1,250 nt of DNA from NCBI RefSeq assembly GCF_003334785.1, contig NZ_QOWV01000064.1. The stretch is one strand, 5' to 3'. Source of the stretch: Escherichia coli. GTDB lineage: Bacteria; Pseudomonadota; Gammaproteobacteria; Enterobacterales; Enterobacteriaceae. Shown piece after piece: positions 1 through 1,250 of the stretch. The position numbers were made by a program, and so were the translations under genes. The notes under the pieces were generated by a model that saw only the letters and a program-made list of their open reading frames with translations, was not told where the DNA came from and did no database searches. Numbering within the stretch: position 1 is the first letter of the stretch; every line of letters starts with the position of its first letter.

Positions 1-503
1 CTGATTCGCTTCAGGGCTTCTTCTGCCGTCGCACTTTTGCTGCTGATGTATACATCGTGGATTTTTCGCCGGGCATGAGCCCAGCACGCAACTTCTGTCA
101 GCGCACTACCTTCACGTTCTGCACTGAACAGCCTGTCATAACCTGTGAACGCATCCGCCTGCAGGATACCCCGGAAGGGGCGGAGGTGTTGCTCCGGGTG
201 TTTCCCCTGCCGGTTCGATGAGTACGCGAACCAGACCGCCGGAGGAGATGACGAACCCGCATTGCGATCATCCCGGACATACGTCCAGATGCGCCCTGTT
301 TTCGTCTTTTTCAGGCCCGGTGCCAGTACCTTTACCGGTGTGTCGTCAGTGTGAAGCTTGCGGGTATTCATCACATAACGGTACAGGGCATCATTCAGCG
401 GCGTCATTAACTGGCAGCACGCGTCAACCCAGTTGGAGAGTAATGCACGGCTCAGTTCGACACCCTGTCGGGCAAAGATTTCACTCTGACGATACAGTGG
501 CAG
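1..503 (-). other. N-terminal part of the TnpC DDE catalytic domain (truncated by window edge)
   Basis: LPLYRQ (aa 216-221, plus 486..503), LHTDDTPV (D268/D269 at plus 342..347) and CWAHARRK (aa 355-362, plus 63..86) motifs. Catalytic-residue assignment is inferred from family knowledge, not verified by alignment. Confidence 0.55.
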
Positions 504-1148
504 GTGTTCGCAGTATTTTCCCGTTAACACGCGGGCAAGTAATCCGGGGCCCGCGATACCACGCTCTATCGGGCGGGACGGCGCCGGTGCTTCAACGATG
601 CAGTCACATTTTGTACAGGCTTTTTTTACCCGTTCTGTGCGGATCACTTTCAGGGCGCTGCTCACCAGTTCCAGTTGTTCTGCGCTGACTTCCCCCAGAT
701 AATCCAGCTCACCGCCACACTCCGGGCAACAGCTTTCTTCAGGCTCCAGGCGGTATATTTCACGGGGGAGATGTGCCGGTAACGGACGACGATGGCGCGA
801 CTGTCGCAACTGGCGGGGAACCAGCGGGTCATCCTCACGCCCACTGTAACGATCGCTTTCCTGCTCGCGTTGTTTCAGCAGGGCTTCAGCCTGTTCAACC
901 TCACGACGCAGTTTTTCAGAACGGGTTCCGAACAGCATCCGGCGCAGTTTTTCTATCTGAGCCCGCAGATGCTCTATTTCTCGCTCATCTTCTTCGATCT
1001 TTTCTTCGGCACGTGCCAGTGCAGAGCGCAGGAAGGCCTCCGTCTCTTCAACCAGACTCAGTTGCTGGTCTTTCTGACGGAGGGCTTCAGCCTGCTCAGA
1101 GAGCAGCCTTTCCAGCTCAGCGATGCGAATGAGGTATTTCTGACTCAT
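1..1148 (-). CDS. tnpC: IS66-family transposase TnpC (Orf3), N-terminal 382 codons; 3' end lies beyond the window start
   Basis: Manual minus-strand translation from ATG (plus 1146..1148) to position 3 gives 382 codons with no stop: MSQKYLIRIAELERLLSEQAEALRQKDQQLSLVEETEAFLRSALARAEEKIEEDEREIEHLRAQIEKLRRMLFGTRSEKLRREVEQAEALLKQREQESDRYSGRE...CCPECGGELDYLGEV...ACTKCDCIV...CEHLPLYRQSEIFARQGVELSRALLSNWVDACCQLMTPLNDALYRYVMNTRKLHTDDTPVKVLAPGLKKTKTGRIWTYVRDDR...ACWAHARRKIHDVYISSKSATAEEALKRI. The leucine-zipper-like N-terminus, Cys-rich zinc-finger, and the LPLYRQ and CWAHARR motifs are the signature of IS66-family TnpC (Pfam LZ_Tnp_IS66 / zf-IS66 / DDE_Tnp_IS66 architecture, recalled not searched). 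Absent from the supplied ORF track, presumably because it has no stop inside the window. Confidence 0.9.
   Translation of the reverse strand, partial: MSQKYLIRIAELERLLSEQAEALRQKDQQLSLVEETEAFLRSALARAEEKIEEDEREIEHLRAQIEKLRRMLFGTRSEKLRREVEQAEALLKQREQESDRYSGREDDPLVPRQLRQSRHRRPLPAHLPREIYRLEPEESCCPECGGELDYLGEVSAEQLELVSSALKVIRTERVKKACTKCDCIVEAPAPSRPIERGIAGPGLLARVLTGKYCEHLPLYRQSEIFARQGVELSRALLSNWVDACCQLMTPLNDALYRYVMNTRKLHTDDTPVKVLAPGLKKTKTGRIWTYVRDDRNAGSSSPPAVWFAYSSNRQGKHPEQHLRPFRGILQADAFTGYDRLFSAEREGSALTEVACWAHARRKIHDVYISSKSATAEEALKRI
600..731 (-). other. TnpC zinc-finger-like Cys cluster (C140/C141-P-E-C144 ... C178-T-K-C181-D-C183)
   Basis: Two CxxC pairs about 34 residues apart (CCPEC at plus 717..731; CTKCDC at plus 600..617), the arrangement expected for the IS66 transposase zinc-finger (zf-IS66). 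Read directly from the translation. Confidence 0.65.
621..627 (-). repeat. A7 homopolymer tract on the tnpC coding strand (T7 on plus strand), phased as A_AAA_AAA
   Basis: Plus 621..627 is ttttttt; the coding strand reads CGG GTA AAA AAA GCC (R-V-K-K-A, aa 173-177). Confidence 0.9.
864..1136 (-). other. TnpC N-terminal charged coiled-coil / leucine-zipper-like region (approx. aa 5-95)
   Basis: Translation is dominated by E/R/K/Q/A/L with leucines and isoleucines at heptad-like spacing (IRIAELERLLSEQAEALRQKDQQLSLVEETEAFLRSALARAEEKIEEDEREIEHLRAQIEKLRRMLF...LRREVEQAEALLKQREQE). Matches the leucine-zipper region described for IS66 transposases. Boundaries are approximate. Confidence 0.6.
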
Positions 1149-1178
1149 GGCCGTTTTTATAATGCGGTCAGGAGTTTT
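1149..1178 (-). promoter_or_regulatory. tnpB-tnpC intergenic spacer / tnpC translation-initiation region
   Basis: The 30 nt between the tnpB TAA and the tnpC ATG read on the minus strand AAAACTCCTGACCGCATTATAAAAACGGCC. No canonical AGGAGG-like Shine-Dalgarno lies 5-10 nt before the ATG. A/T-rich. Confidence 0.4.
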
Positions 1179-1250
1179 TTACAACATTGTCAGTGCGTTA
1201 AGGCGGGATGTTTTTGGCTGACGCCAGTCCAGCTTATCGAGGAGCATTGC
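1179..1250 (-). CDS. tnpB: IS66-family Orf2 (TnpB) C-terminal fragment, 23 codons plus TAA stop; 5' end lies beyond the window end. Unrelated to IS200/IS605 TnpB
   Basis: Minus-strand frame entering from position 1250 translates AMLLDKLDWRQPKTSRLNALTML followed by TAA (plus 1179..1181). The LLDKLDWR...LTML ending matches my recollection of enterobacterial IS66 Orf2 C-termini. Its position immediately 5' of tnpC on the same strand fits the canonical tnpA-tnpB-tnpC order. Confidence 0.8.
   Translation of the reverse strand, partial: AMLLDKLDWRQPKTSRLNALTML

Follow-up and report, generated by a model that had tools for sequence, protein, structure and literature searches.

A probably coincidental 14-nt direct repeat in tnpC of the insertion sequence ISEc47 and its use as a deletion substrate on ETEC plasmids

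A perfect 14-nt direct repeat in the 5′ part of tnpC, the transposase gene of ISEc47, is most probably (at roughly 85%, by our own estimate) a matter of coincidence, two short helical segments of the protein with no relation to each other being encoded identically in a lineage-specific manner; it would have no function of its own and be deletable like any short repeat. At least one natural deletion has nevertheless used it as a substrate, in an IS copy undergoing decay on ETEC plasmids.

The window and its element

The window (the whole 1,250-nt stretch of DNA that was analyzed) is 100% identical to a copy of ISEc47, of the IS66 family, on the Escherichia coli plasmid NZ_AP022179.1, where it is annotated as "IS66-like element ISEc47 family transposase", and it is 92–95.5% identical to ISEc23, IS682 and copies of the ISEc8 type, which together number in the thousands. 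Matches to the window in E. coli amounted to 4,477 records with 9,287 places, and were present in 3,235 of 5,426 complete genomes. Both of its genes are read from the minus strand. Positions 1–1148 hold the 5′ part of tnpC (382 of 537 codons), assigned as the IS66-family DDE transposase gene of ISEc47 from its translation, its Pfam matches and the 100% match; the start ATG lies at 1148–1146 and the open reading frame runs off the window start. Positions 1179–1250 hold the 3′ end of tnpB, which encodes an IS66 accessory protein (the last 23 codons plus a stop codon at 1181–1179, assigned from translation and annotation). In the annotated ISEc47 copy the gene order is tnpA-tnpB-tnpC in a single orientation, and it is the tnpB 3′ end of this arrangement that falls within the window. 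The 30-nt spacer between tnpB and tnpC (1149–1178) is the stretch that varies most among close relatives.

Three Pfam domains were identified in the TnpC translation: LZ_Tnp_IS66 (PF13007) at aa 60–130 (window 759–971, minus strand, 1.8e-12), zf-IS66 (PF13005) at aa 138–182 (E=5.5e-12) and DDE_Tnp_IS66 (PF03050) at aa 196–382 (E=2.6e-59), the last of which ends at the window edge. A search of the literature on IS66 TnpC and the leucine zipper yielded nothing that concerns this region of TnpC. The element itself, the coiled-coil (LZ) region of the protein and deletion between short direct repeats are all already known.

The 14-nt repeat and its chance expectation

The sequence AGGGCTTCAGCCTG occurs at plus 880–893 and again at 1081–1094 with 0 mismatches. 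No third site was found in the window, even with 2 mismatches tolerated, and the whole IS (locus L001) likewise holds these two sites only. From start to start the copies are 201 bp (67 codons) apart, and they share a common frame on the minus strand, which is the coding strand. Copy 1 (1081–1094, minus) spans codons Q19-A20-E21-A22 and 2 nt of L23, and lies in a segment that encodes the hexapeptide EQAEAL at aa 18–23 (1080–1097, minus; unit 1). Copy 2 (880–893, minus) spans codons Q86-A87-E88-A89 and 2 nt of L90, and lies in a second EQAEAL segment at aa 85–90 (879–896, minus; unit 2), which is the only one of the two that falls within the LZ_Tnp_IS66 domain. The positions that border the 14-mers carry synonymous differences (GAG or GAA for E, CTC or CTG for L), giving 16 of 18 identical nucleotides over the hexapeptide. 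No other exact direct repeat in the window is as long, the next being 11 nt. The repeat had been reported in a first-pass annotation of the sequence, the positions, spacing and frame of which were reproduced exactly on recounting, while the residue numbers that it gave (aa 19–27 and 86–94) were one too high.

The probability of a repeat of at least 14 nt per window was 0.0025 in first-order Markov sequences, 0.008 when codons were shuffled across the CDS and 0.006 when they were shuffled within aa 1–100, and the probability of a repeated hexapeptide in aa 1–100 was 0.005 in shuffles. The repeat is therefore unusual for a single window, yet a scan across a genome should turn up repeats of this kind occasionally. 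If the peptide is taken as given, along with the codon usage of tnpC itself, identity of all four fully covered codons has a probability of ~0.024, a value that is low but unremarkable once it is considered that the longest repeat was picked post hoc. Dispersed exact hexapeptide repeats are uncommon, and the family representatives described below had none. Chance is not an overwhelming explanation for one window; it is comfortable only given the multiplicity of a genome scan together with the variation among relatives that is described below.

Origin of the two segments

The first-pass annotation read the pair as the product of an internal duplication in the coiled coil. In our view it is very unlikely that the EQAEAL units are relics of such a duplication of a TnpC segment, although it would account for the same hexapeptide being encoded in frame by nearly the same codons, and other family members (P0068, P0081, P0113 and P0120) do have heptad-scale tandem duplications at the N-terminus. 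The similarity of the flanks is at background level: beyond the hexapeptide, nucleotide identity at an offset of 201 (45 nt on each side) was 31%, against an in-frame background of 28.7 ± 3.2%, and Smith-Waterman alignment of aa 1–50 with aa 56–110 fell short of significance (P=0.13; P=0.40 after masking of the hexapeptide). A duplication old enough for all flank similarity to have been erased is incompatible with 14 identical nucleotides that include synonymous sites, and relatives show drift at those very sites.

The heptad pattern also argues against a duplication. A register scan predicted a leucine-zipper-like heptad stretch at aa 9–72 (933–1124, minus), over which the register is unbroken, with a positions at I9, L16, L23, L30, E37, L44, I51, I58, I65 and L72; in this best register 70% of the a and d positions are L, I, V, M or F, compared with 50% in the second best. 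Since 67 mod 7 = 4, a spacing of 67 residues does not amount to whole heptads, and the two units have different heptad positions, unit 1 being c-d-e-f-g-a and unit 2, which lies past the LFGTRSEK break, being g-a-b-c-d-e if the register were continued to it.

The family alignment, which was built from the TnpC N-termini of homologs found in a search of 1.84 billion representative proteins, places the units on different conserved motifs. Unit 2 falls within the LZ_Tnp_IS66 domain, on the conserved Q-L-E-L-x-L past LFGxxSEK. The motif after (L/R)FGxxSE(K/R) reads Q-L-E-L-x-L-E in most members, SQAEQAL in P0018 and AQMEADL in P0049, and Q-L-E-L is kept at the unit 2 position in nearly all aligned members. 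Unit 1 aligns to a variable stretch past the N-terminal L-P-D-D...L-K-x-L-L motif, and a segment resembling it is kept in two outgroups, as ELKRLLAGQEAL in P0049 and ELKALLSAQFTEVEAL in P0004. Since the units align to different family motifs, units 1 and 2 descend from different ancestral positions, and with the flanks at background the earlier claim of a duplication could not be upheld.

The same annotation had suggested that the N-termini of other IS66 TnpC proteins be compared for the same periodicity. Among 114 diverse full-length family representatives (first 110 residues), there were no dispersed exact repeats of at least 6 aa, so the periodicity did not recur. Exact repeats of that length were found in 4 of the 114, the same four members named above, and all of them were tandem with a spacing of 7 or 14 residues. 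These tandem repeats are a different phenomenon from the EQAEAL pair.

The reading that we favor, a coincidental identity, involves the following. Both segments sit in an N-terminal region of TnpC in which E, L, R, A and Q abound, unit 1 as a piece of the N-terminal heptad zipper and unit 2 as the local form of the conserved family motif after LFGxxSEK. Synonymous and conservative changes in the ISEc47/ISEc43 sub-lineage, and in a few other copies, would then happen to have given identity over 14 nt.

Variation among close relatives

Among the loci fetched, two perfect 14-mers were present only in the window, L001, L008 and L013 (ISEc43). In relatives with 92–95% identity, unit 2 reads ELAEAL or EQAEAQ, or else unit 1 is missing. 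In ISEc23, unit 2 is GAACTGGCTGAGGCTCTG (ELAEAL), which matches the 14-mer at 11 of 14 positions, and in IS682 it reads ...GAGGCCCAA (EQAEAQ); ISEc8-like copies have GAG at E88, and an in-frame indel of 7 codons has left them without unit 1. Unit 2 with its exact 40-nt context, the variant by which the repeat is perfect, was found in only 341 records, compared with the 4,477 that match the window. The identity of the 14-mers is, on the sequences compared, lineage-restricted. The first-pass annotation had named chance similarity as the reading to be preferred if homologs lacked the second EQAEAL unit, and imperfect or missing units are what the relatives have.

The 21-bp in-frame indel (window 1080–1100, aa 17–23) corresponds to one heptad, SEQAEAL, that is, unit 1 plus a Ser. 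It separates the ISEc8-like copies, which read ELESQLRQK (loci L003, L004, L009 and L016; proteins P0001 and P0151), from ISEc47, ISEc23 and IS682. Judging from the alignment, the short form looks like a derived deletion of one heptad that preserved the zipper register, because the outgroups P0049 and P0004 keep the segment resembling unit 1. For the same reason, we rejected the opposite polarity, an insertion copied from unit 2, to which 17 of the 21 nt are identical by eye.

Maintenance of the identity by short-tract gene conversion or templated repair is, we estimate, slightly less probable even than a duplication. It would explain why all four fully covered codons are identical despite a prior of ~0.024, and the window has GAA at E88 in common with L008 but not with ISEc23, although ISEc23 is the closer of the two, which gives a hint of mosaicism. 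A 14-nt tract is, however, far short of the homology that is usually needed, and both flanking codons differ. Moreover, unit 2 of the ISEc8-like copies is only one synonymous change from perfect (13 of 14 positions, relative to unit 1 of the window) in copies that are without unit 1, and mosaicism among whole IS copies fits the distribution of GAA equally well.

Lower again in our ranking is the possibility that the 14-mer is a functional nucleic-acid element, such as a site bound twice by a protein or part of an mRNA fold that governs the translation of tnpC. The transcript surrounding unit 1 (window 1110–1020, minus; tnpC mRNA nt 39–129) does fold at –40.9 kcal/mol (z = –2.97), with 0 of 200 shuffles as good, but the whole IS has the 14-mer at two sites only, ISEc23, IS682 and ISEc8-type elements, which are abundant and presumably active, have not conserved it, and unit 1 is wholly missing from a large sub-lineage. 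The predicted hairpin overlaps unit 1 and has its arms at 1032–1044 and 1076–1088. The modeled hairpin is probably incidental, because the differences in its arms among relatives are not compensatory.

A natural 201-bp deletion on ETEC plasmids

A repeat of 14 nt could misalign in replication, or its copies could be joined by short-homology recombination, in either case leaving one hybrid copy; the loss would be 201 bp (67 codons), in frame. A 40-nt query for the resulting junction was made by joining window 867–893 to 1095–1107, of which normal copies match at most 27 contiguous bases, below the 28-nt megablast word size. A 200-nt junction query was uninformative, as the two halves of normal copies were merged into one "place" spanning 401 bp. 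With the 40-nt query, the junction was identified at 40/40 in three E. coli plasmids, NZ_CP024244.1, NZ_CP035818.1 and NZ_CP127268.1, and a search of PLSDB returned the same three. In blastn alignments, positions 55–614 of the remnant on these plasmids correspond to window 338–897 and positions 597–766 to window 1081–1250, an offset difference of 201. One copy of the 14-mer is kept and the frame continues across it, the product reading ...LLSEQAEALLKQREQ... and the open frame running on as ...ELERLLSEQAEALLKQREQESDRYS... The 187-bp interval between the copies (894–1080, minus), which together with one repeat copy makes up the 201 bp (67 codons) lost, codes for the greater part of the heptad zipper and for the conserved motif LRRMLFGTRSEK. 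The product is very probably inactive, because it has lost both of these, and the second is the best-conserved motif of LZ_Tnp_IS66. We infer that the molecular route would have been replication slippage or RecA-independent short-homology recombination.

The remnant is otherwise 99.6% ISEc47-like in tnpC, carries a nonsense codon (window 467, G>A) and has been truncated on both sides by IS3-family insertions. Across the three plasmids its 883 nt do not differ at all and stand in the same IS3-flanked context, and the shared flanks have 0 and 5 differences over 4.4 kb; the strains that bear the plasmids differ and come from Bangladesh, South Africa and Guinea-Bissau. Given the identical remnant and the shared flanks, we conclude that there was one event, inherited by related ETEC (CFA/I-type) plasmids. 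That the junction is an assembly artifact is the least probable of all the alternatives, as repeated IS sequences are prone to misassembly but here the same remnant was obtained in the same unique context in three assemblies from different strains and countries.

At these loci (L010–L012, locus positions 1204–4458), the two IS3-family elements that bracket the remnant lie beside CFA/I and CS1 fimbrial genes, and in L012 the other half of tnpB, as well as tnpA, survives past the IS3 insertion. On the tnpB side of the deletion junction (window 1081–1250), 4 of the 6 differences between the remnant and the window cluster at 1164–1173.

The suggestion in the first-pass annotation that the repeat could be a substrate for in-frame deletion was thus borne out, in that the predicted junction exists in three plasmids with exactly 201 bp lost, as one event in a dead remnant. 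Its proposal that variants without the 67-codon interval be sought was borne out in part: one DNA allele was found, in the three plasmids, while no protein with the deletion was present in a collection of 5.8 billion clusters, in which other internal deletions did surface. The reciprocal tandem-duplication junction had no match in E. coli genomes, and a 32-nt version of the deletion junction had none in GTDB representative genomes or JGI metagenomes. No independent recurrence of the 201-bp deletion was found, and what these searches document is one event rather than a hotspot.

Other deletions in the same region

An 11-mer repeat, CGCAGTTTTTC, served as a control for the deletion-junction search. 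Its copies at 907–917 (minus; aa 78–82) and 943–953 (minus; aa 66–70) both encode EKLRR and lie 36 bp (12 codons) apart, in frame, on the two sides of LFGTRSEK, a conserved motif. The junction expected from a 36-bp deletion was found in 11 E. coli records, and the loss was confirmed as exactly 36 bp in L014 and L015, which represent two different sequence backgrounds and are both pseudogenes. A further candidate, L016, was a false positive with a point difference instead of the deletion. Because an 11-nt repeat with copies 36 bp apart gave deletions in at least two backgrounds, the 14-mer does not stand out as a hotspot, and it is not special as a deletion substrate.

Additional small deletions of 21, 13 and 7 bp were identified nearby at the DNA level. 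Two of these are out of frame and occur in decayed copies, in the region of about 975–1000 / 1020–1030 of the window: a 13-bp deletion between very short repeats in L015 and a 7-bp deletion flanked by a GCAG repeat in L003. In L009 (NZ_CP023903.1, 350–673), the sequence at ~aa 64 is joined to the C-terminal part of tnpC. Two larger losses were deduced from protein sequences, namely ~43 aa in P0172, which reads EKLR|QLRQS, and 51 aa in P0188, which reads SLVEE|AETLLKQ; the latter loss apparently took place between the TTCAACC-containing copies of the D1 repeat at 1029–1053 and 876–900. All of the copies inspected are annotated as pseudogenes.

Significance

A coincidental short repeat, in frame, within an insertion sequence common in E. 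coli matters little in itself. Such repeats do shape the erosion of dead IS copies, as is seen in the exact 201-bp and 36-bp deletions at predicted junctions. A junction query whose halves are below the megablast word size is a cheap test, in large genome collections, of claims that a repeat is a slippage substrate. In addition, the 201-bp deletion allele could mark a lineage of ETEC CFA/I-type plasmids. It is conceivable, and to us highly improbable, that in-frame zipper alleles of 201, 36 and 21 bp yield a shortened, dominant-negative TnpC that regulates transposition in the IS66 family, the repeats serving as a built-in switch.

Comparison with known systems

The window's element has the same gene order and the same three TnpC Pfam domains as the ISEc47/ISEc43/ISEc23/IS682/ISEc8 group of the IS66 family. 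As an element it does not differ from that group; the pair of perfect 14-mers is a feature of the ISEc47/ISEc43 sub-lineage and a few other copies.

Coiled-coil proteins with heptad indels and duplications offer a second comparison. The unbroken N-terminal heptad register of TnpC, the 7-codon indel (SEQAEAL) that separates sub-lineages and the tandem repeats of 7 or 14 residues in other members all resemble what is seen in such proteins. The EQAEAL pair differs from these in that its members are 67 residues apart, which is not a multiple of 7, and lie on either side of the LFGxxSEK break, and it is not a heptad duplication.

In E. coli, the loss of DNA between short direct repeats is a classical phenomenon that proceeds by slipped misalignment or RecA-independent short-homology recombination. 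Reportedly classical cases are the lacI deletions that arose spontaneously (Albertini et al., 1982) and those of plasmid assays with direct repeats (Bi and Liu, 1994; Lovett). Compared with those systems, the case described here comprises one event in a dead IS copy. The likeness lies in the structure of the event: of a perfect 14-nt repeat with 187 nt between its copies, one copy was kept, and 201 bp were lost.
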